DNA of 64,000 nucleotides from Candidatus Nomurabacteria bacterium (lineage in GTDB: Bacteria; Patescibacteriota; Minisyncoccia; Phycocordibacterales; CALRBL01): NCBI GenBank assembly GCA_963834935.1, contig CAWIDS010000001.1, positions 1,338 through 65,337 of the forward strand, written 5' to 3'. Made by a program: the position numbers and the translations under genes. The notes beneath the pieces were generated by a model, which saw nothing but the letters and a program-made list of their open reading frames with translations, was not told where the DNA came from and did no database searches. Position 1 is the stretch's first letter; every line of letters begins with the position of its first letter. Shown here one piece after another: positions 3,402 through 22,012 of the stretch.

Positions 3402-3839
3402 ATGAGTTATTCTTTATTTCCTGTCAGCGAACCTGACACCTACCCGATCTTCTCCGAGCAAAAGCCGTCAGACATGTTCGCCGAAATCATTTGTAACGGC
3501 GGTACTCCGGTGAGCGACTGCGAGCTCTGTGGCAGAACGCACTTCAATGAAACCGGCGAGTACATGGACAAAGGAGAACTTGAAAAACTCCTCGAAAGAC
3601 AACAGGCCGAGCCGGATAAATATGTTGCCCATGATAATCAGGTCTATCATGGCGACTTTGACAGCAAGCGGGTCGTCTGGGATTGCCCTTGTAACGGCCT
3701 GCGTCTTTACGAGGAGATGTTGTGGGGCGAACGACATATGATCTCCCAGTACATCTGTGCCAGAGCCGAAGCGAACTTGGATGTTGCCCAACACGATGCC
3801 GAAGCAGCGACGGCGACCAAGGAAGCCTTGGAATCCTAA
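3402..3839 (+). CDS. Cys-rich hypothetical protein, possibly a Zn-ribbon protein.
   Basis: ORF of 145 aa with CELCGRTH and DCPCNG motifs. GC-rich. Confidence 0.5.
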   Translation: MSYSLFPVSEPDTYPIFSEQKPSDMFAEIICNGGTPVSDCELCGRTHFNETGEYMDKGELEKLLERQQAEPDKYVAHDNQVYHGDFDSKRVVWDCPCNGLRLYEEMLWGERHMISQYICARAEANLDVAQHDAEAATATKEALES

Positions 3840-3948: not shown

Positions 3949-4599
3949 ATGAGCAATGAATTGCCGGAAAAGGCCATTGAAGCTGAAAAAGAAGCTACTT
4001 TGGAATTATTCAGCTTGAACGAAGAACAATCGGCTGAATTAAAAAAGCGGATCGAGAAATTCCACGGGCTTGTCCGAATCTTCATACATCCTGATACTAT
4101 TTCTCCGGATGAATATTCAAAGCAATTTCTGGGATTTGTCATGACAATCTCATCTGAAAATTCACCTCCGATTATTTTCTTGGAAGACCACAATCATGTA
4201 GAAGGTTTCAAGGAAGACTTTGAACTGATGAGGGATAAATTACCTAATCCGATTTATTTCGCTGAAACGTTACCACGATTTCCCTACCCGATCTTCCCCG
4301 GTGATACGGTTCCAAATGAAATAGTAGAATTCAGGGAAATGCCTCTTGAACAGCAAAAAAACGCAGTTAAGGGCATGAGAACGCTTGCGATCATCCTCAG
4401 AAATTTGGGTGTCAAAAAAGTCTTAGTCGGCGGAGCAAACCTTGAAATCGACGATTCCGATAGACTTCAGGAGTGCGTAGGAAATTTCGTTGAATCATTC
4501 AATATGTGCGGGGAATCCGATTTTGATATAAAAGTTTCGAACTTGACCATACCTAAAAACAGAAACGATTTAAGAGGTGTAAGGGATAAATTTTTGTAA
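3949..4599 (+). CDS. Hypothetical protein.
   Basis: ORF of 216 aa with no recognised motif. Starts after the terminator of the previous gene. Confidence 0.5.
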   Translation: MSNELPEKAIEAEKEATLELFSLNEEQSAELKKRIEKFHGLVRIFIHPDTISPDEYSKQFLGFVMTISSENSPPIIFLEDHNHVEGFKEDFELMRDKLPNPIYFAETLPRFPYPIFPGDTVPNEIVEFREMPLEQQKNAVKGMRTLAIILRNLGVKKVLVGGANLEIDDSDRLQECVGNFVESFNMCGESDFDIKVSNLTIPKNRNDLRGVRDKFL

Positions 4600-4680
4600 A
4601 ACATATGATTTCATATTTCGCTTATGGCCCAAACCAAGATGAGGCTCAAATGAGACCCGAGGCTTTACTTTTAATCCTTC

Positions 4681-5040
4681 TTGCCATATTATGCAAATCG
4701 CTTGCATAATATGAGAACCAACGTATACAAAGGACAGATACTGAAGCTGCTTAAGAAAAAGCATCTTTTGACTATCGCGGAAATTCACAAAGCTGTTCCG
4801 AATGCCGACTATTCCACGGTCTTCCGCAATGTCGAGCAGCTTCTCAAAGGCAAGCAGATCAAGAAAATCATGGTCGACAACCGGTCTATCGCGTACGAGT
4901 TTTCAAAAGACAGTCATGATCATTTTATCTGCAACGATTGCGGAAAGGTCGAATCGATTCACCTGCCCCGCAATTCAATCAAAGACCGCAAGATTGACGA
5001 TATTACCATAAGAGGCAGTTGCGGTAACTGCACAAATTAA
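4681..5040 (+). CDS. Fur-family metalloregulator (Fur/Zur/PerR-like).
   Basis: The ORF track starts at TTG 4681; the ATG at 4711 is the likely start. Winged-helix N-terminal domain, then HDHFICNDCGKV and a C-terminal CGNC. The next gene begins 1 nt after the stop. Confidence 0.8.
   Translation: MPYYANRLHNMRTNVYKGQILKLLKKKHLLTIAEIHKAVPNADYSTVFRNVEQLLKGKQIKKIMVDNRSIAYEFSKDSHDHFICNDCGKVESIHLPRNSIKDRKIDDITIRGSCGNCTN
4685..4713. promoter_or_regulatory. Perfect 12-5-12 palindrome (candidate operator) whose last triplet is the ATG of the Fur-family gene.
   Basis: CATATTATGCAA-atcgc-TTGCATAATATG. The two arms are exact reverse complements. Confidence 0.6.
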
Positions 5041-5041
5041 T

Positions 5042-5995
5042 ATGAGAATAGCTTTCGTAGGAAAAGGCGGATCAGGCAAAAGCACCCTCTCGGCGTCGTT
5101 CGCTTCATATCTCTCAAAACATACCGGCAAGCCGGTGACCGTCTTTGATGCGGACATTAATATCCACGTGCCAGAGCTTCTCGGCTTCGGTGTCATACCT
5201 TTTGAAAAGCACCTCTCGAATCCGAAGGTGTCGAAAGTGATCAAGAAGTGGCTGCTCGGCAGCAACGATATGAGCGACTCCGGCGCATTTCGCAAGTCTA
5301 CGCCACCGACACGCAAATCGAACATCATTAAGATAGAATCAATCGGAAAAACACCTGTCGGAACATTTGGGTCACATGATGGAAATCTTTCGATCTTCGC
5401 CGTTGGGACATATCAGGATGAAGACATCGGGGCAAGCTGTTATCACAATAATCTCGCTATACTTGAAAACATCTTAAGCCATACGGACGACAAGAATGGT
5501 TATGTGGTAGCTGACATGGTCGCGGGAGTAGACTCATTCGCTGGGACTCTCCATGCGCAGTTTGATCTTACCTGCCTGATAGTAGAACCGACGGTGCGAA
5601 GCATTGAGGTCTATGCCAAATACATGGAGCTTGCGAGGGAGGCTGGCGTCGCTGACAGTCTTCGCGTCATCGGGAACAAGATAAGAAGCGAGAAAGACAA
5701 AGACTTCATTCGTGCCCATATTCCACCGGAAGAAATCATCGGATACTTCACTGATGATGATCATATCCGAGATATTGATCAGGACGGTAGAGCGCTTTCA
5801 ATATCAAAGCTTAATCAAAGCAATCAGGAACTATTGAAACAGGTTCTAGAAGCCGCAGACTCTTTGCCTGATAATCGTGACACGAGGCTCAAGAAAATCT
5901 GGGACTTGCATAAGAAATATGTGGCGCAGGCCTTTGTAAAAGACAAATTTGGAGACCTGACAGATCAAATAGATTATGACTTCACATTCCGATAA
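5042..5995 (+). CDS. CooC-family (MinD/ParA-class) P-loop ATPase, metallochaperone-like.
   Basis: Deviant Walker A GKGGSGKST and a DADINIH segment. CooC-like blocks FAVGTYQDEDIGASCYHNNLAILENIL, LTCLIVEPT and VIGNKIR. The usual C-x-C position reads C-Y-H. Confidence 0.8.
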   Translation: MRIAFVGKGGSGKSTLSASFASYLSKHTGKPVTVFDADINIHVPELLGFGVIPFEKHLSNPKVSKVIKKWLLGSNDMSDSGAFRKSTPPTRKSNIIKIESIGKTPVGTFGSHDGNLSIFAVGTYQDEDIGASCYHNNLAILENILSHTDDKNGYVVADMVAGVDSFAGTLHAQFDLTCLIVEPTVRSIEVYAKYMELAREAGVADSLRVIGNKIRSEKDKDFIRAHIPPEEIIGYFTDDDHIRDIDQDGRALSISKLNQSNQELLKQVLEAADSLPDNRDTRLKKIWDLHKKYVAQAFVKDKFGDLTDQIDYDFTFR

Positions 5996-7484
5996 CAATA
6001 TTAAAAACCTCCCCGATGACGGCAAGCCGTCTTTGCTTGAGACGGAAAAAAGCAAACTGGTATACGCCGGCCCGGCTTCGATTTTGGATTATCTCAATCC
6101 CGACAATACTCCCTACACGCCGCTAATAGAAATTCCAGATCATCTTAATCCGTATCTCAAAAGCGGGGTGAGGATCTTTGCGAAGCTCATGAATGCGCTG
6201 CCTCTCGCAAACGTGAAGTCGCTTCCGGCGTACAACATGCTTCTCGATAGGAAGGAAAAAGGACCGCTGCCGGACACCATCATCGAGAACTCATCAGGTA
6301 ACACGGCATTTTCTCTTGCGGTCATTGCCCGGCTTATGGGCATACCACATACAAAAGCTGTCGTCTCTCACGAGGTAAGCCGCGGCAAACTCAACATACT
6401 GCGTCTTCTCGGTACCGAAATAATCGTCAATGACGAGCCCATTTGTCCTGATCCAAGCGATCCAACGAGCGGAATCTACAAAGCAAAGGAATGGTCAAAA
6501 GAGAACGGCTGGTTCAACCCCGGACAATACGACAACGAAGCTAATCCTGCCGCTCACTACAAATGGACAGGTCCGCAGATATGGGACCAGACAAAAAGTA
6601 AAATTTCCCTGCTCTCCACCGGTCTTGGAACTACGGGCTCAGCCGTGGGAATCGGTACATTCCTCAAGGAGAAAAATAAAGACATTAAAATTCTTGGCGT
6701 AACGCGCATCGTTAATAATCAAATACCCGGTGTTAGAACTGCCAGCCTTCTCAAAGAGGTCGCTTTTGATTGGCGATCGGTGATCGATTTTCAAGAAGAA
6801 GTCGGCACAACTGAATCGTTCAAGATGTCCATGGAGCTATGCCGGTCCGGATTATTCGTCGGACCAAGCTCAGGCTTTGCCTTGGTAGGACTTTTGAATC
6901 ATATCGCAAAGCAAAAGCTCTCCGGTGAAGAAAAAATAGCCGTCTTCATCTGTCCCGACAGTCCGTTTCCCTATATCGACGAGTATTTTCAATATCTTGA
7001 TCCCGCAGTTTTCCCAGAAATCCAGAATGAGCGACTGCTTAAGGAAAAGATTCAGATCAGCCCGTCGCAAAGTGCCGCCATCAAAGAGCTTGGCCCGCTG
7101 GAAGTGTTTGACCTTATTTTTACCGGCACACCCGATAAAGTCTGGGAAAAAATAGGAAACAAGCAAGAAGCAGATATCAAAAAAGGATTCGCTGTGATTG
7201 ATGTCCGTAACGAAGGAGAGTATGAAGACCACCACATCCCGGAATCGATCCATGTTCCCTTTCATGAACTTGATGAATTCCTCAAGAAAAACAAGACGAG
7301 CCTCGCCAGAAATGAAGCGGTCATTTTCGTCTGCAAACATGGCAATGCAAGCCGGCTCGCTGCTTACAAAGCGGAGGAACTTGGTCTCAAACCGATCAGC
7401 CTCAAAGGCGGCGATGCCGAATGGAGCAGGCTTGATCTGCCAAGAATCCGTGCTGAGAAATGCATCATCAAATTCGATTTATGA
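5976..7484 (+). CDS. Cysteine-synthase-family PLP enzyme (fold type II) fused to a C-terminal rhodanese domain.
   Basis: PLP-lysine region ANVKSLPAYNM. Glycine loop TGLGTTGSAVGIG. C-terminal rhodanese with active-site loop CKHGNAS. Overlaps the previous gene by 20 nt. Confidence 0.8.
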   Translation: MTSHSDNNIKNLPDDGKPSLLETEKSKLVYAGPASILDYLNPDNTPYTPLIEIPDHLNPYLKSGVRIFAKLMNALPLANVKSLPAYNMLLDRKEKGPLPDTIIENSSGNTAFSLAVIARLMGIPHTKAVVSHEVSRGKLNILRLLGTEIIVNDEPICPDPSDPTSGIYKAKEWSKENGWFNPGQYDNEANPAAHYKWTGPQIWDQTKSKISLLSTGLGTTGSAVGIGTFLKEKNKDIKILGVTRIVNNQIPGVRTASLLKEVAFDWRSVIDFQEEVGTTESFKMSMELCRSGLFVGPSSGFALVGLLNHIAKQKLSGEEKIAVFICPDSPFPYIDEYFQYLDPAVFPEIQNERLLKEKIQISPSQSAAIKELGPLEVFDLIFTGTPDKVWEKIGNKQEADIKKGFAVIDVRNEGEYEDHHIPESIHVPFHELDEFLKKNKTSLARNEAVIFVCKHGNASRLAAYKAEELGLKPISLKGGDAEWSRLDLPRIRAEKCIIKFDL

Positions 7485-7505
7485 TATTGAATTTTTACGT
7501 TTTCA

Positions 7506-7760
7506 TTGGACGGAATCTATGAAAGCATGACACCCGAAGAAGCCCATGCGCACTTCGTAAAGATGGGAATGTTTGGCGCAAACGGGCCGTGGGCTCCACG
7601 CGAGCCTGTCGAGCCCGAAGGCTTGAATGGACTCATCGGCAAAGACAAGGTCTTCAAAGCCTTCCTGCTCGACAAAGGTCTGCCAGGAAATATGGTCGAC
7701 CTCGTCCTTAGTGGGAACGCCCTCCGATTCCTGAAGCGTGCACTTCGCTTAACCTACTAG
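7506..7760 (+). CDS. Small GC-rich ORF; possibly a remnant of an amidohydrolase C-terminus.
   Basis: Weak resemblance of DLVLSGNALRFL to amidohydrolase C-termini. No SD. A terminator follows. Confidence 0.3.
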   Translation: MDGIYESMTPEEAHAHFVKMGMFGANGPWAPREPVEPEGLNGLIGKDKVFKAFLLDKGLPGNMVDLVLSGNALRFLKRALRLTY

Positions 7761-7779
7761 TCTCTCGGGGCTGACATCC

Positions 7780-7823
7780 GCAAGTAATTGATTACCCGGT
7801 CAATTGCTTGCAGTTTTTTTATT
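7780..7823. terminator. Bidirectional rho-independent terminator between convergent genes.
   Basis: Hairpin GCAAGTAATTG...CAATTGCTTGC followed by TTTTTTTATT. Confidence 0.6.
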
Positions 7824-9652: not shown

Positions 9653-10351
9653 TTGAAAAATCTAAAAGAGATAAACGCGCAGCTTCAGGATGCTGACCCC
9701 CGTGAGATAGTCACATGGGCTCATGAGACCTTCGGAAATAGCCTGGCCATGACTTCGGGTTTCGGGGCCGAATCGGCCCTGACAATCAATCTAGTTACGC
9801 TTCGTGTCCCGGAGATTCCTGTGATCGTCATTGATACCGGATACCTCTTTCCAGAGACGCACGCCTTTATGGAGAAGCTCAGGAAGAGGTTCAGCCTCAA
9901 CCTGAAGACCTACTTCCCTTTGCTTAGTCCGTTCGCCATGGAAAACCAATATGGCAAACTATGGAAGCAAGGCAAGCGAGGTCTGGAATGCTACAACCGG
10001 ATGAGAAAAGTGGAGCCAATGGAACGGGCACTCCGCGAACTCGGTGTCAAAGCCTGGATTTCAGGATTAAGGGCAGACCAGACAGCGCTACGTTCCAAAT
10101 TGAAGATAGTCGAAAGAAGATCTGATGGAATATACAAGATCCATCCCATCATCAAATGGACGGCGGAGGAAATCCGCCAATACTTCTTCCTTTACGACCT
10201 GCCCTATCATCCTTTAGTTGAAAAAGGCTATTCGTCTATCGGCGATTGGCATTCGACGCTTCCCTCAAAAGACCGTTCCGGACGTTTCAACGGGATCAAG
10301 GAAGAATGTGGGCTGCACGAAGAATTATGCGGAGATAACAGCGAGGTATAA
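9653..10351 (+). CDS. cysH: Phosphoadenosine-phosphosulfate / adenylylsulfate reductase (thioredoxin-dependent), CysH.
   Basis: TTG start with AGGAG 7 nt upstream. PAPS-reductase fold. C-terminal catalytic ECGLH motif. Confidence 0.85.
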   Translation: MKNLKEINAQLQDADPREIVTWAHETFGNSLAMTSGFGAESALTINLVTLRVPEIPVIVIDTGYLFPETHAFMEKLRKRFSLNLKTYFPLLSPFAMENQYGKLWKQGKRGLECYNRMRKVEPMERALRELGVKAWISGLRADQTALRSKLKIVERRSDGIYKIHPIIKWTAEEIRQYFFLYDLPYHPLVEKGYSSIGDWHSTLPSKDRSGRFNGIKEECGLHEELCGDNSEV

Positions 10352-20299: not shown

Positions 20300-22012
20300 C
20301 TACCTGTCTGGTGGAATCCCGTAATAGGTGATAAGGAAATTGGTAAGATCAACGAATGTGGGACCGAGAGATTGCGACGAATATGGCACTCCTTGCGGAT
20401 TGACTGCATACATGAATATCAGGAATTGAGGATTGTAAGCGGGGAGATAACCGAAGAAGGAATGGAGATTGTGGCTATCATCGTAATATCCTCCACCAGG
20501 CGCCGGAATCTGAGCCGTACCGGTCTTCTCTGCGATGCTATAATGAGGATTCTTTGCCGCACCATTCTGGAAATACTGGTCGAAGTCATCGACGAGCATG
20601 TCAGTGACCGCTTTGGACGTGGAAGGCTTGATGACCTGTGGTCCGGTCGGATAGGTAATATCCTTGAAAGTGCCTATGGTGTAATTTATCCTTTTCACTA
20701 TATGCGGAGTGATGAGCGTTCCGCCATTCGCTATTGCCGAAAGGGCGCGCACCACTTCAAGCGGAGTGACGGCGATGCCCTGTCCGAATGAAGCAGTAGC
20801 GTATTCCAAGTCGCGCGGGCTGTTGAGGTTCGATATGAGCCCTGTCGCTTCGTTCGGAAGGTCGACGCCCGTCTTCTGCCCCAGCCCGAATGCAGTAAAA
20901 TATTTCCTGAAATTATCATGGCCAATTTTTTGCGACAAGAAGACGAATCCGGTATTAAGCGAGTAGCCCATCGCTTCCTGCATCGGAATCACCCCTCTTC
21001 CCGCCTTATCGAAATTATAGATCGTGCTGCCATTCAAAGTGACCGATCCTGTATCATCATACGTGGTGCTTGCGTTGGCGATGCCGAGATCGATGGCAGT
21101 GGCCATCGTCAAAGGCTTGACGATGGAACCCATCTCATGGACATTCTCCACCACATCATTCGAAAATACCGCGGAGCTTTTTTGAACCCTGAAATTATTC
21201 GGATCGAAGGTAGGATTCAAGGCCATTGCATATATCTCGCCGGTCTTCGGGTTGATGATAAGGCCACCGATGCTTTCAGGGTTGTATTCATCCTTCACTT
21301 TCTGCAGAGCTTTCTCAAGCGTATCCTGCACAGTCGGATCGATAGTGGTAACAAGATCGCCTTCGAGCGGCTTGTCCTGCACGACAGTCTTATTAACGTC
21401 AGCGAATATCTCAGCAAAGAAATTCACATAGACGTCGTTGGCATTCCTTGCGAGCACATCGTCATAATAGCTTTCGAGGCCGTATCTTCCGGCAAGCACG
21501 TCGCCCTTATAGCCTACGAAACCGAGGACATGCGCAGCAAGCGAGCCGGCCGGATAGTCGCGCCAGCTGTCTTGATAGATGGAAATGCCTGGCAAGCCGA
21601 GAGATTCGACAGTCTTAGCTTTGTCGTCATCAACCTGTTTTTCGACTTCGACATAGCTTTCAGTCTTGTCTGCAGCTCGCTCGTCAAAATTAACACAATC
21701 AATGTCGCTGATGATGGCCTGTATCTTCTCGCAAGTTGAGGTGGCATCTTTGACTTTCTGAGGATCCAGTGCGATGAGGTAGCCAGACTTCAAGGTCGCC
21801 GCAGAAACTTCATTGCCGTCCTTATCGGTAAAAAAGATAGAGCCGCGATCGAAGACATATTGCGCTGGACGCACGTACTGGCGGTCAGCGCGGTCTGTCA
21901 GTTCCTTGCCGTGCACGATCTGCAGCAAGTAAAGCCGGCTTATGAGCACCAAGGCGAAAGCGACTATCAGGAATGAGAAAAGGCGTATGCGGAATTGGAA
22001 AGAAGATTTCAT
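20300..22012 (-). CDS. ftsI: Peptidoglycan D,D-transpeptidase FtsI (class B PBP).
   Basis: N-terminal TM anchor and PBP dimerisation domain. Motifs SIVKP (SxxK), SLN (SxN) and KTGTA. Sits in the dcw context after ftsL. Confidence 0.9.
   Translation of the reverse strand: MKSSFQFRIRLFSFLIVAFALVLISRLYLLQIVHGKELTDRADRQYVRPAQYVFDRGSIFFTDKDGNEVSAATLKSGYLIALDPQKVKDATSTCEKIQAIISDIDCVNFDERAADKTESYVEVEKQVDDDKAKTVESLGLPGISIYQDSWRDYPAGSLAAHVLGFVGYKGDVLAGRYGLESYYDDVLARNANDVYVNFFAEIFADVNKTVVQDKPLEGDLVTTIDPTVQDTLEKALQKVKDEYNPESIGGLIINPKTGEIYAMALNPTFDPNNFRVQKSSAVFSNDVVENVHEMGSIVKPLTMATAIDLGIANASTTYDDTGSVTLNGSTIYNFDKAGRGVIPMQEAMGYSLNTGFVFLSQKIGHDNFRKYFTAFGLGQKTGVDLPNEATGLISNLNSPRDLEYATASFGQGIAVTPLEVVRALSAIANGGTLITPHIVKRINYTIGTFKDITYPTGPQVIKPSTSKAVTDMLVDDFDQYFQNGAAKNPHYSIAEKTGTAQIPAPGGGYYDDSHNLHSFFGYLPAYNPQFLIFMYAVNPQGVPYSSQSLGPTFVDLTNFLITYYGIPPDR

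Follow-up and report, generated by a model that had tools for sequence, protein, structure and literature searches.

A PLP–rhodanese fusion related to fungal aspergillomarasmine A synthase in a Fur-family-linked operon of Patescibacteria

Results

Organization of the locus

The window analyzed here is the whole stretch of 64,000 nucleotides, to which all coordinates refer. It contains a compact series of genes on the forward strand, with the following features.

4681..4710, forward strand: promoter-like site TTGCCA-18-CATAAT (10/12 match; a consensus match only), overlapped by the operator
4681..5040, forward strand: gene for a Fur-family transcriptional regulator, cluster c2 (Pfam FUR, E 4e-13)
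4685..4713, no strand assigned: operator, a perfect 12+12 nt inverted repeat CATATTATGCAA-N5-TTGCATAATATG, with the core ATGCAA-N5-TTGCAT at 4691-4707
5042..5995, forward strand: gene for a CooC-like P-loop ATPase of 317 aa, cluster c1 (phmmer, AF2, Foldseek)
5976..7484, forward strand: PLP–rhodanese fusion gene, 502 aa, member of the AMA-synthase clade
6117..6953, forward strand: PALP (fold-type II PLP) domain, aa 48-326 (Pfam; conserved-residue alignments)
7134..7430, forward strand: rhodanese domain, aa 387-485 (Pfam), with the loop C453-KHGNAS, Cys codon at nt 7332-7334
7443..7463, forward strand: C-terminal tail motif P489-R-I-R-A-E-K-C496 (alignments), Cys codon at nt 7461-7463
7506..7760, forward strand: small open reading frame of 84 aa, between the PLP gene and the terminator
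7780..7821, forward strand: terminator-like hairpin, a 14-bp stem followed by a T run, which closes the transcription unit

The reading frame at 5976-7484 starts with ATG, and its coordinates are exactly those given in an earlier, sequence-only reading of this DNA. A record of an identical protein exists on a contig of 432,723 bp, and the two-domain layout recurs in over 1,400 relatives; the gene is therefore genuine and widespread, not a chance open reading frame. The 3' end of the ATPase gene overlaps it by 20 nt. The 84-aa frame downstream gave no Pfam match and no tblastn match in 90 loci; since it is not conserved elsewhere, its membership in the module is doubtful.

The real start of the regulator is probably the ATG at 4711. 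The protein has a Cys4 site (CxxC...CxxC) and an E-x5-H-x-H site. A second promoter candidate, TTTACT-17-TATTAT at 4664-4692, overlaps the left arm of the operator. Across 710 kb of related loci the operator core is matched 36 times where about 2 matches would be expected, with 33 of these matches in the promoter region of the module; TGCAA-N5-TTGCA is near-invariant across 35 sites. The Nur box of Streptomyces coelicolor, tTGCaa-N5-ttGCAA, has a 6-5-6 geometry (PMC2691836), and the operator found here shares both this unusual geometry and the identical core TGCAA-N5-TTGCA. The regulator itself, however, is no closer to Nur (PDB 3eyy, a weak match at E 0.14) than to Fur and PerR, its best PDB matches (E 1e-6), and it carries the Cys4 site.

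Domain architecture of the fusion protein

The fusion of a cysteine-synthase fold with a rhodanese, described in the sequence-only reading, was recovered by Pfam at both ends of the protein. The PALP match has an E-value of 4e-46 and 158 bits (cut-off 35). The C-terminal part matches the Rhodanese family (PF00581) with E 3e-14 and 53.8 bits against a cut-off of 22.2, over profile positions 3-101 of 102; a profile search thus detects the rhodanese fold there. A GlpE-like model matches the same domain with 33.7 bits, under its cut-off of 102. The AlphaFold2 model of the fusion protein is confident, with a mean pLDDT of 87.7 and a pTM of 0.81, and the alpha/beta pattern of the rhodanese domain is confidently modelled.

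The PLP lysine and the glycine-rich phosphate loop, both noted earlier, are present and conserved: the lysine is K81 (NVK81SL, nt 6216-6218) and the loop is G216-L-G-T-T-G221, in which G-TTG is invariant. The lysine and the substrate loop S106-S-G-N-T110 are likewise invariant in the relatives aligned. Further residues of the PALP domain are C157 in PICPDP (nt 6444-6446), R254 in PGVRT (nt 6735-6737) and S298. The rhodanese active-site loop is C453-K-H-G-N-A-S459; as read from the sequence, C453-K-H-G-N-A followed by S-R is of the six-residue type. Six-residue loops are those of sulfurtransferase-type rhodaneses, and seven-residue C-X5-R loops those of Cdc25/Acr2. The active-site loop of GlpE is CYHGNS, which the C453 loop resembles.

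Relationship to aspergillomarasmine A synthase

Comparison of sequences and of the predicted model identifies the enzyme as a bacterial relative of fungal aspergillomarasmine A (AMA) synthase. In phmmer searches its closest solved relative is AMA synthase 8H4H/8H4Q (E 1e-79, 271 bits, 42-46% identity over about 339 aa), whereas any CBS, CysK or CysM reaches at most 113 bits and at best E 1e-31 with the same protein. AMA synthase 8H4Q/8H4H is also the top Foldseek match of the predicted model, full-length over about 500 columns (E 1e-43). In the PLP domain the protein is 42% identical to AMA synthase, compared with 30% for CysM and 26% for CysK. A neighbor-joining tree, which carries no support values, groups the fusion protein with AMA synthase in a single clade and separates it from CysM and CysK.

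All NCBIfam cysteine-synthase models score far under their cut-offs (cysKM 137 of 344 bits, cysM 130 of 394, cysK 112 of 351, PRK11761 129 of 413), and we rejected a CysK/CysM equivalog on these grounds. CBS was rejected on its phmmer scores relative to AMA synthase, and SbnA because its model (TIGR03945) gives 106 bits against a cut-off of 350 and an SbnB-type partner is missing. The sequence-only reading had assigned the PLP domain to the CysK/CysM/CBS type and suggested placing it among CysK, CysM, CBS and SbnA; the shared fold held up, none of the four fitted by the scores given above, and the domain fell into the AMA-synthase clade.

The two proteins have in common the two-domain layout, the lysine motif NVK-x-x-PA and the arginine in PG-x-R[ST]. 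The motif N-V-K-S-L-P-A is found as in AMA synthase, and E. coli CysK/CysM have SVK[DC]R. R254, retained by 294 of 296 family proteins, lines up with the arginine of 'VPGPRS' in AMA synthase and with R210 of E. coli CysM ('IPGIRRW'). The AMA synthase of Aspergillus oryzae has been solved in the apo form (8H4H) and with O-phosphoserine (8H4Q) (Guo et al., ACS Catal 2020, as cited in PMC12751119). It is one of two characterized members of the clade; both use O-phosphoserine and form C-N bonds (PMC12751119). The other, Fda4 of the fusadapamide pathway of Fusarium poae, is a PLP enzyme with a rhodanese-like domain that carries out beta-substitution and prefers O-phosphoserine over O-acetylserine (PMC12751119). 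By analogy with these homologues, O-phosphoserine would be the electrophilic substrate of the bacterial enzyme.

There are also differences from the fungal enzymes. AMA synthase uses L-Asp as nucleophile to form C-N bonds and lacks Fur-family or CooC-like partners. It has PSQPAP where the bacterial protein has PICPDP, and thus no equivalent of C157, has no C-terminal cysteine, and some of its close fungal relatives have lost the rhodanese cysteine. Around the nucleophile pocket the residues differ from those of AMA synthase, R143, R244 and N247-N248 being confined to the bacterial proteins. Fda4 condenses L-Ala, after which the FAD enzyme Fda3 oxidizes the conjugate to L-Dap for an NRPS (PMC12751119); such a partner is absent here. 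The product of AMA synthase, a Zn/Ni/Co metallophore, matches the metal-regulated setting of the bacterial gene.

More distant systems share parts of this picture. CysM and CysK have the fold, the PLP lysine, the Asn loop, the Gly-rich loop and, in E. coli CysM, the equivalent of R254, but identity is only 26-30%, the lysine motif differs, and the enzyme studied here has the extra Cys loop and the fused rhodanese. Mycobacterium tuberculosis CysM with the CysO thiocarboxylate is alike in concept, with a protein-bound sulfur donor attacking the aminoacrylate. SbnA, of staphyloferrin B synthesis, has no rhodanese domain, and the loci studied here have no SbnB-type partner. The EDDS genes of Amycolatopsis japonicum reportedly encode an SbnA-like enzyme. 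Points of likeness to SbnA and to the Zur-regulated [S,S]-EDDS genes are the CysK-type fold, O-phosphoserine, metallophore synthesis and Fur-family control (PMC6103462).

Conserved cysteines

C453, which the sequence-only reading took for an intact catalytic Cys, does not vary in alignments of 34 and of 58 relatives. The two outcomes named there as refuting, a missing rhodanese fold and a Cys that orthologues do not keep, were not observed. Across the family (296 proteins; the co-occurrence counts that follow are not phylogenetically independent), C453 is found in 204 of the 207 proteins that carry the rhodanese domain, C157 in 200 of these 207 as opposed to 4 of the 89 without the domain, and C496 in 189 of the 207. 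The tail motif around C496 is invariant in the close bacterial fusion clade and C496 is absent from the fungal clade. The fungal C-N-forming clade also lacks C157, and some of its members (P0163, P0180) lack C453. This pattern of cysteines argues for a functional difference between the bacterial and fungal clades.

Genomic context

A CooC-like ATPase gene lies directly upstream of the PLP gene in 49 of 80 loci and a Fur-family regulator gene adjoins the module in 39 of 80, in the conserved order regulator, ATPase, enzyme. Of 13 neighboring YibE/F proteins, 9 have His-rich tails and are encoded across a common operator-bearing intergenic region. A COG0523 GTPase occurs in three loci, in one of which (L037) it heads the operon itself. 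Some lineages have a methyltransferase that is encoded in the operon or fused; those encoded in the operon resemble carboxyl O-methyltransferases (CmoM, Tam, BioC). Gene content places the PLP–rhodanese gene in metal homeostasis rather than in housekeeping synthesis of cysteine. As to the metal, Ni is hinted at by the Nur-like operator and the likeness to CooC, and Zn by COG0523.

The idea, put forward earlier, that the fusion serves an unusual route of sulfur assimilation gains no support from these neighbors. A bona fide CysH is encoded at 9653-10351, 2.2 kb downstream of the PLP gene (254 bits, cut-off 154), but among the 80 loci this is so in the present window only, and CysH is not a conserved neighbor; the conserved partners are the Fur-family regulator, with its own operator, and the CooC-like ATPase, joined in some loci by His-tailed membrane proteins and in three by COG0523. 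In the loci examined we found no CysE, Ser-pathway or sulfite-reductase neighbors, no CysO or MoeZ context and no SbnB/OCD-like or Fda3-like gene. Cysteine desulfurase is not a conserved neighbor in the CPR loci. In a single locus, L033, a gene of the DsrE/SaoD sulfur-carrier family lies inside the operon (192 bits, cut-off 152).

The ATPase encoded at 5042-5995 has a deviant Walker A motif with signature lysine, G7-K8-G-G-S-G-K13-S-T15. It matches CooC1 (3kje) in phmmer with E 1e-12, C133 and H135 being aligned to the C-Y-C of CooC1, and its AF2 model (pLDDT 89.9) has CooC1 as top Foldseek match (E 2e-13; next match 3e-9). C133-Y-H135 is invariant and lies at the position of the C-x-C nickel site of CooC1, the Ni-insertion ATPase for CO dehydrogenase. 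The two proteins thus share the Walker A type and the position of the metal site, but the ATPase described here has about 65 additional C-terminal residues, C-Y-H in place of C-x-C and the PLP enzyme as its apparent partner; in P0117 (46% identity) the two are fused. Because of the C-Y-H replacement and because no locus contains a CODH/ACS gene, we classify the protein as CooC-like and not as CooC.

A second PALP–rhodanese lineage

An independent, CysM-like PALP–rhodanese lineage has the same Cys loop as the C453 enzyme. In all six of its loci (actinomycetes, cyanobacteria) a SufS/CsdA-like desulfurase gene adjoins it, and its other neighbors include heavy-metal P-type ATPase, FUR and ArsR-type genes. 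One cluster, L089, encodes C-Y-H ATPases homologous to the 5042-5995 product (E 3e-43 and 1e-39). These clusters are larger, adding the SufS-like desulfurase, a DAP-decarboxylase-like enzyme and methyltransferases. The sequence-only reading had proposed that persulfide sulfur could feed a beta-replacement site, and this gains support from the co-occurrence of C157 and C496 with the rhodanese domain, from the DsrE/SaoD gene of L033 and from the SufS-like neighbors of the second lineage.

Discussion

The probable role of the enzyme is to make a small amino acid that binds metal, not to take part in ordinary cysteine assimilation. The reading that we prefer, and hold tentatively, is that it is a phosphoserine-dependent enzyme with a persulfide relay that makes a thiol ligand for a Ni/Zn-handling module. 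The operon would be a self-contained, Fur-family-controlled unit of metal homeostasis consisting of the regulator, the CooC-like Cys/His ATPase and the PLP–rhodanese enzyme as its catalytic gene. By comparison with the homologues, K81-bound PLP would eliminate the beta-leaving group of O-phosphoserine, with R254 holding the phosphate, to give the aminoacrylate. C453 would accept sulfane sulfur from a SufS-type desulfurase or a DsrE-type carrier and carry it as a persulfide. As conservation suggests, the C157 loop of the PLP domain may help to pass the sulfur to the aminoacrylate, and an enzyme–product disulfide may be resolved by C496 of the flexible tail. The product would be cysteine or a cysteine-type thiol amino acid, which in some lineages the in-operon or fused methyltransferase may methylate on the carboxylate. 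It would act as ligand or buffer for a thiophilic divalent metal, Ni or Zn, handled by the ATPase and the His-tailed membrane proteins.

Several observations speak against a thiol ligand. AMA synthase and Fda4 form C-N bonds without sulfur, so homology alone predicts an amine nucleophile. A desulfurase is not a conserved neighbor in CPR loci, and the DsrE insert is found in one locus. The three cysteines C157, C453 and C496 could equally form a metal or redox-regulatory site, and the in-operon methyltransferases, by their likeness to carboxyl O-methyltransferases, would suit a polycarboxylate product no less well than a thiol. We know of no precedent for a CooC-type ATPase acting beside a thiol-forming enzyme.

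The main rival is an AMA-like synthase of an aminopolycarboxylate metallophore, which we regard as somewhat unlikely and yet as the most serious alternative. Such an enzyme would join O-phosphoserine once or twice to an amino acid such as Asp, giving a Zn/Ni/Co chelator of the toxin A/AMA type. The closest characterized homologues, of the same architecture, have exactly such chemistry. For Ni the KD of AMA is about 80 pM, and Zn and Co are bound as well (PMC11091072). Its gene cluster consists of two genes (PMC12751119). A one-enzyme pathway would suit a reduced genome. With no SbnB/Fda3-type partner, the pathway would end at the C-N conjugate. Low metal would derepress the operon, with YibE/F as transporter, the CooC-like ATPase as metallochaperone and the cysteines as regulatory or metal-sensing residues. 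Metallophore synthesis placed under Fur-family control along with NTPase chaperones is a well-known arrangement, Zur regulons pairing such synthesis with P-loop NTPase chaperones (PMC6103462), and the carboxyl O-methyltransferase-like proteins of the operon would also fit. What an AMA-like synthase leaves unexplained is the invariance in bacteria of C157, C453 and C496, which are dispensable in the fungal C-N enzymes, as well as the DsrE insert and the SufS-like partner of the parallel lineage; the bacteria-specific residues R143, R244 and N247-N248 around the nucleophile pocket also count against it.

The original reading, framed here as a housekeeping persulfide-dependent cysteine synthase that provides the organism's sulfur-assimilation route and is analogous to M. 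tuberculosis CysM with CysO, now appears improbable. It would account for the intact rhodanese and Cys relay, for the arginine at the position of CysM R210 and for the CysH gene downstream in the window. Against these stand the low scores with all NCBIfam cysteine-synthase models, the absence of conserved CysH across the 80 loci and of CysE, Ser-pathway and sulfite-reductase neighbors, and the dedicated Fur-family operator and paired, once fused, metallochaperone-type ATPase, for which a housekeeping role offers no explanation.

We consider it quite improbable that the rhodanese is inert, either as a structural or oligomerization module inherited with the AMA-synthase scaffold or as a Cys3 sensor of metal or redox state that turns the PLP enzyme on or off, the product being neither sulfur-derived nor cysteine-dependent. 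The rhodanese-like domain of the fungal homologues has no known catalytic part, and some of these proteins lack the Cys; three conserved thiols make a typical Zn/Ni/As(III) site, and the operator evidence suggests that the module is metal-regulated. The bacterial loop, however, is of the six-residue GlpE sulfurtransferase type, and a pure sensor would hardly account for the repeated association with sulfur donors of the SufS-like and DsrE-like kinds.

Finally, the module might be the sulfur-mobilizing arm of a metal-sulfur or Fe-S assembly system under Fur-type control like the E. coli suf operon, in which the PLP domain frees sulfur from cysteine or cystine, the rhodanese carries the persulfide and the ATPase, a dimer whose interface has Cys/His ligands, is scaffold or insertase; this is very improbable, for although SufS-SufE-SufBCD under Fur parallels PLP enzyme, persulfide carrier, ATPase and Fur regulator, the ATPase belongs to the MinD/Mrp/NifH/CooC class that bridges metals or clusters at the dimer interface, and P0117 fuses ATPase and enzyme, fold-type II PLP enzymes are not known to make protein persulfides from cysteine, the known chemistry of the clade is beta-substitution on phosphoserine, one Cys and one His per monomer are atypical for a bridging 4Fe-4S cluster, and partners such as the methyltransferase and the decarboxylase suggest that the product is a small molecule.

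In a wider reading, the module of regulator, C-Y-H ATPase and PLP–rhodanese enzyme, together with its larger actinomycete and cyanobacterial counterpart, may make a novel small molecule or metallocofactor that contains sulfur and binds metal. An aminoacrylate derived from phosphoserine would be combined with a protein persulfide, after which Ni or Zn would be loaded or unloaded by the CooC-type ATPase. This wider proposal is possible, though doubtful. It would amount to a minimal thiol-metallophore or cofactor pathway, widespread in ultra-small Patescibacteria, whose sulfur chemistry would be the ancestral one from which the fungal AMA synthases derived.

A PLP enzyme fused to a rhodanese domain

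The window ORF at 5976-7484 (+ strand) has an ATG start and encodes a protein of 502 amino acid residues; an identical protein is recorded on a 432,723-bp contig. Pfam searches detected, well over gathering cut-offs, a PALP (fold-type II PLP) domain at residues 48-326 (E 4e-46) and a rhodanese domain at residues 387-485 (E 3e-14). Together with the rhodanese loop C453-KHGNAS, these matches firmly bear out the sequence-only reading of this gene as a cysteine-synthase-fold enzyme fused to a rhodanese with an intact catalytic cysteine. The PLP lysine (K81) and the glycine-rich phosphate loop that it named are likewise found in the protein, which carries the loops S106-SGNT110 and G216-LGTTG221. 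The two-domain layout is common to more than 1,400 proteins, chiefly encoded on MAGs of Patescibacteria, namely Paceibacteria and some that carry the label Saccharibacteria. The AlphaFold2 model of the window protein is confident (pLDDT 87.7).

While the cysteine-synthase fold stands, the proposed affiliation with CysK/CysM/CBS/SbnA-type enzymes does not. Scores of the window protein with the NCBIfam cysKM, cysM, cysK, CBS, cysteate synthase and SbnA models (106-137 bits) are far under the cut-offs (344-600), which rules out an equivalog of a cysteine-synthase-type family. The best matches among solved structures, both labelled 'rhodanese domain-containing protein' (8H4Q and 8H4H; E 1e-79, 271 bits), are named by Foldseek as fungal aspergillomarasmine A (AMA) synthase, in the apo form and with O-phosphoserine; the next match is CBS (E 1e-31). 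The Foldseek rmsd of ~18 Å between the AlphaFold2 model and 8H4Q shows only that domain orientation differs between model and crystal. Over ~339 residues, the bacterial proteins of the family share 44-46% identity with AMA synthase, and the PLP domain of the window protein is 42% identical to that of AMA synthase, versus 30% for CysM and 26% for CysK. A neighbour-joining tree of the PLP domain, which carries no support values, separates E. coli CysM and CysK from a single clade that contains the window protein, the remaining bacterial fusions, the fungal AMA-synthase group and a bacterial subgroup with the PLP domain only. The lysine motif N-V-K-x-x-P-A is clade-wide, its CysK/M counterpart being S-V-K-[DC]-R, and the arginine of P-G-x-R-[ST] (R254), which aligns with E. 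coli CysM 'IPGIRRW', is kept in 294 of 296 family proteins. We firmly assign the window protein to the AMA-synthase clade and not to CysK, CysM, CBS or SbnA.

AMA, a Zn/Ni chelator of clinical relevance, inhibits metallo-beta-lactamases and prevents bacteria from taking up nickel. AMA synthase joins O-phosphoserine and L-Asp into toxin A, and O-phosphoserine and toxin A into AMA (PMC12751119). Fda4, a relative from Fusarium poae that is also a PLP-dependent enzyme with a rhodanese-like domain, joins O-phosphoserine and L-Ala, and C-N bond formation is the reaction type of both enzymes (PMC12751119). In the searchable literature, these two fungal enzymes were the only known PLP-rhodanese fusions of the AMA-synthase clade, and no description was found of the bacterial clade, its three cysteines, its C-Y-H CooC-like partner or its Nur-box-like operator.

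Proteins of the PLP-only subgroup of the same clade are ~350 residues long, lack both the rhodanese domain and C157, and share 47-54% identity with the PLP domain of the window protein. They are encoded within arsenic-resistance-like clusters (loci L052-L080, e.g. L061, L062, L067, L070, L079 and L080) of marine Rhodobacteraceae, other Proteobacteria and Actinomycetota, alongside ArsR, ArsD, a two-domain ArsA, a MIP/AqpS channel and a class I/II aminotransferase. Possible products of these putative phosphoserine-dependent beta-substitution enzymes and the aminotransferase are a thiol ligand or even a C-As compound. Literature searches linking ArsA/ArsD ars operons to cysteine-synthase-like genes gave nothing useful.

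Three cysteines co-vary with the rhodanese domain

The distribution of C157, C453 and C496 was read from the 296 aligned family proteins whose PLP domain is complete.

Table. Occurrence of the rhodanese domain and three cysteines in family proteins (not phylogenetically independent)
Rhodanese present; C157, C453 and C496 present: 189 proteins
Rhodanese present; C157 and C453 present, C496 absent: 10 proteins
Rhodanese present; C157 present, C453 and C496 absent: 1 protein
Rhodanese present; C453 present, C157 and C496 absent: 5 proteins
Rhodanese present; C157, C453 and C496 absent: 2 proteins
Rhodanese absent; C157 absent: 85 proteins
Rhodanese absent; C157 present: 4 proteins

The catalytic cysteine C453 is conserved in 204 of the 207 rhodanese-bearing relatives, and C157 occurs in 200 of these 207 versus 4 of the 89 proteins without the domain, all counts being phylogenetically non-independent. 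With the rhodanese fold detected and its cysteine conserved, neither observation that would have overturned the sequence-only reading was made. The non-independence of the counts is tempered by the recurrence of the Cys loop-rhodanese pairing in a distinct lineage that is closer to CysM and has the motif SVKDR. The three cysteines firmly co-vary with the rhodanese domain and, judged from the alignment, are strongly constrained and mutually coupled in the bacterial fusions. Rhodanese-bearing proteins without C157 (n=7) are mainly fungal-type, and the rhodanese cysteine is also missing from two fungal-type proteins, P0163 and P0180; the cysteines are thus dispensable in the lineage known to form C-N bonds.

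A conserved module with a CooC-like ATPase

We called and clustered ORFs at 80 genome loci encoding relatives. The corresponding features of the window are:

4681-5040, Fur-family regulator gene
4685-4713, perfect 12+12 nt palindrome at the beginning of the regulator gene
5042-5995, partner ATPase gene, overlapping the PLP gene by 20 nt
5976-7484 (+), PLP-rhodanese gene
7780-7811, strong terminator at the 3' end of the unit

A ~320-residue homologue of the window ATPase is encoded directly 5' of the PLP gene, on the same strand, at 49 of the 80 loci, and the Fur-family gene is adjacent at 39. The sole strong solved relative of the ATPase is CooC1 (E 1e-12), which is also the best fold match to its model (E 2e-13; next match 3e-9). 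CooC1 is the ATPase that inserts Ni into CO dehydrogenase. The deviant Walker A with its signature lysine, typical of ATP-dependent dimeric switch proteins, is kept throughout the ATPase family, whose 1,595 matches make it about the size of the PLP-rhodanese family. Several histidines are also invariant, as is C133-Y-H135, which aligns with the CooC1 metal motif; that motif is C-Y-C in CooC1, whereas the window ATPase has C-Y-H. Because the Cys/His site is altered, the partner is different and no CODH genes were found in the loci examined, we call the ATPase CooC-like.

In P0117 (829 residues) the ATPase is fused to the PLP-rhodanese protein, and the N-terminal part of the fusion aligns with the full-length window ATPase at 46% identity. 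This protein is known from a single 4.3-kb contig only, and since the two genes overlap in the window, a one-base error could yield such a fusion; it is supporting, not decisive, evidence for the ATPase-enzyme partnership. P0063 (765 residues) has an N-terminal methyltransferase, giving the row FUR, ATPase, [MTase-PALP-Rhodanese]; in L024 and L042 this methyltransferase has a gene of its own within the operon (E 1e-28 to 1e-30), and its best matches, all under cut-off, are the carboxyl O-methyltransferases CmoM, trans-aconitate methyltransferase and BioC. A second, unrelated class I methyltransferase (cluster c22, ~212 residues) adjoins the PLP-rhodanese gene in L003, L047 and L048. Accessory neighbours include YibE/F membrane proteins (13 loci, with His-rich C-termini in 9), a small His-rich membrane protein, a COG0523 GTPase and an ArsP-type permease with DUF1980. 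At a single locus, L033, a 125-residue SaoD/DsrE-family protein (6677-7054, +; NF040913, 192 bits, cut-off 152) is encoded between the Fur-family and ATPase genes.

Small window ORFs at 7506-7760 (84 residues), 3949-4599 (216 residues) and 3402-3839 (145 residues) had no Pfam matches and no relatives in 90 loci, and were set aside as parts of the system. The first of them (+ strand), between the PLP-rhodanese gene and the terminator, may encode a lineage-specific small protein or be non-coding. At the window edge, positions 1-300 recur in direct orientation and with 100% identity at 1617-1916; the repeat spans at least 300 nt and probably runs on to 482 and 2098. ORF 183-482 duplicates the C-terminal part of a type IV pilin-like gene (1538-2098), so that either a pilin cassette has been duplicated or the assembly is at fault here.

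Two contigs of one MAG labelled Candidatus Kapaibacterium (L005 and L040) each carry an ATPase and PLP-rhodanese pair, with proteins 67% and 48% identical to the window protein; either the bin contains two paralogous modules or it is mixed. Full-length module genes are also found on MAGs that bear the label 'uncultured Gammaproteobacteria' or, in one case, 'Marsarchaeota' (L030, L031, L035, L039, L041, L044, L046 and L047-L049), which may reflect real spread beyond Patescibacteria or bin mislabelling.

A dedicated operator

The palindrome overlaps the best promoter-like site, TTGCCA-18-CATAAT. Its core, ATGCAA-N5-TTGCAT, has 36 matches with at most one mismatch in 710 kb of related loci versus 2 expected from shuffles, and 33 of these lie inside the 2.6 kb upstream of the PLP gene; TGCAA-N5-TTGCA is essentially invariant over 35 sites. 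The putative operator occurs in divergent intergenic regions whose other flank is the gene for YibE/F (L001, L002, L010) or for the His-rich membrane protein, ahead of COG0523 in L037, and also in L082 and L083. In L047 and L048, where the ATPase gene is missing, it lies 11 nt upstream of the PLP gene itself. The palindrome is the only exact match in the 64-kb window; a one-mismatch match inside a PBP gene (21215-21231) was rejected, such matches being within chance expectation in number.

The palindrome has the 6-5-6 geometry and the core of the Nur box (tTGCaa-N5-ttGCAA), the site of a Fur homologue from Streptomyces that responds to nickel (PMC2691836). Despite this site, the regulator is not specifically Nur-like: it is most similar to Fur and PerR (~E 1e-6), with weak Zur (0.04) and Nur (0.14) matches, so that its metal is not assignable from similarity. 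Since an operator and promoter lie at the start of the regulator gene, the operator recurs at the module and a terminator closes it, the unit from ~4680 to 7820 is predicted to be a self-contained, autoregulated regulon. Zur regulons provide a precedent for metallophore synthesis paired with P-loop NTPase chaperones (PMC6103462). The operon with a CooC-like Cys/His ATPase and a dedicated Fur-family operator is firmly conserved, and its setting is metal homeostasis.

A second PALP-rhodanese lineage

The CysM-like PALP-rhodanese lineage is widespread in Streptomyces, Nocardia and cyanobacteria. At all six loci sampled (L085-L090, from Peterkaempfera, Planktothrix, Nocardia, Streptomyces, Oculatellaceae and one metagenome), its gene is flanked by a DAP/ornithine-decarboxylase-like gene and a class-V aminotransferase gene, the product of which best matches the cysteine desulfurases SufS and CsdA (240-298 bits, under subfamily cut-off). 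Methyltransferases are next at three loci; variable joiners are a FUR gene (Planktothrix), a heavy-metal P-type ATPase directly upstream (L090), an ArsR-type regulator and ABC exporters (L088), an amino-acid permease and a DAO-type oxidase. The cyanobacterial L089 encodes two full-length homologues of the window ATPase (325 and 327 residues; 31% and 29% identity; E 3e-43 and 1e-39) that keep C-Y-H, and thus the combination of C-Y-H ATPase and PALP-rhodanese, with or without methyltransferase, recurs on two PLP scaffolds. In these larger genomes the partnership comes with a dedicated putative persulfide-generating enzyme. The cluster, apparently uncharacterised, resembles one for the biosynthesis of a small molecule that contains sulfur and is linked to metals.

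Possible reaction and role

We tentatively rank first a persulfide-dependent, thiol-forming enzyme, because it is the only reading to account for the cysteines, for the DsrE insert and for the SufS-like partner found in the second lineage. The substrate would be O-phosphoserine, as homologues and R254 suggest; sulfur would be relayed from C453 via C157 and C496 to the aminoacrylate, and the product may be a thiol amino acid serving as a ligand for Ni or Zn.

Ranked second, as a possible but more doubtful reading, is an AMA-like, C-N bond-forming metallophore synthase. This reading has the chemistry of the closest characterised enzymes and accords with the regulation as well as thiol formation does, but it leaves the same three features unexplained. 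Housekeeping cysteine assimilation, the physiology suggested by the sequence-only reading, is unlikely. The CysH encoded 2.2 kb 3' of the module (9653-10351, +) is a bona fide PAPS/APS reductase (NF002537, 254 bits, cut-off 154); it is absent from every other one of the 80 loci and was dropped as a functional partner because it is not conserved near the PLP-rhodanese gene. CysH aside, the 64 kb of this apparently patescibacterial genome showed no genes of sulfate assimilation, and the remainder holds housekeeping genes. An inert or sensor rhodanese domain is less likely still, and a role in metal-sulfur assembly is the least probable of these; neither accounts for the features that thiol formation explains. 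A bifunctional beta-cyanoalanine synthase/rhodanese for cyanide detoxification was rejected, since it leaves the Fur and CooC-like context and the AMA-synthase affinity unexplained.

Patescibacteria (CPR) have tiny genomes with very few biosynthetic pathways, and to our knowledge almost nothing is known about their metal acquisition or buffering. The dedicated three-gene module identified here, predicted to be self-regulated, gives them a bacterial counterpart of fungal AMA synthase. The operator sequence, the C-Y-H ATPase and the three conserved cysteines are concrete handles for either leading reading. If the product is an AMA-like chelator, the module would make a bacterial metallophore with a single enzyme and would offer AMA-type biocatalysts; no native bacterial nickelophore for NikABCDE is known so far (PMC11091072). 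If it is a thiol made from a protein persulfide, the enzyme would represent new C-S bond formation on a CysK-fold scaffold and would account for the rhodanese-like domain on AMA synthase. There is a substantial chance of both new chemistry, a C-S bond from a protein persulfide, and new physiology, a minimal metal-ligand pathway of CPR bacteria.
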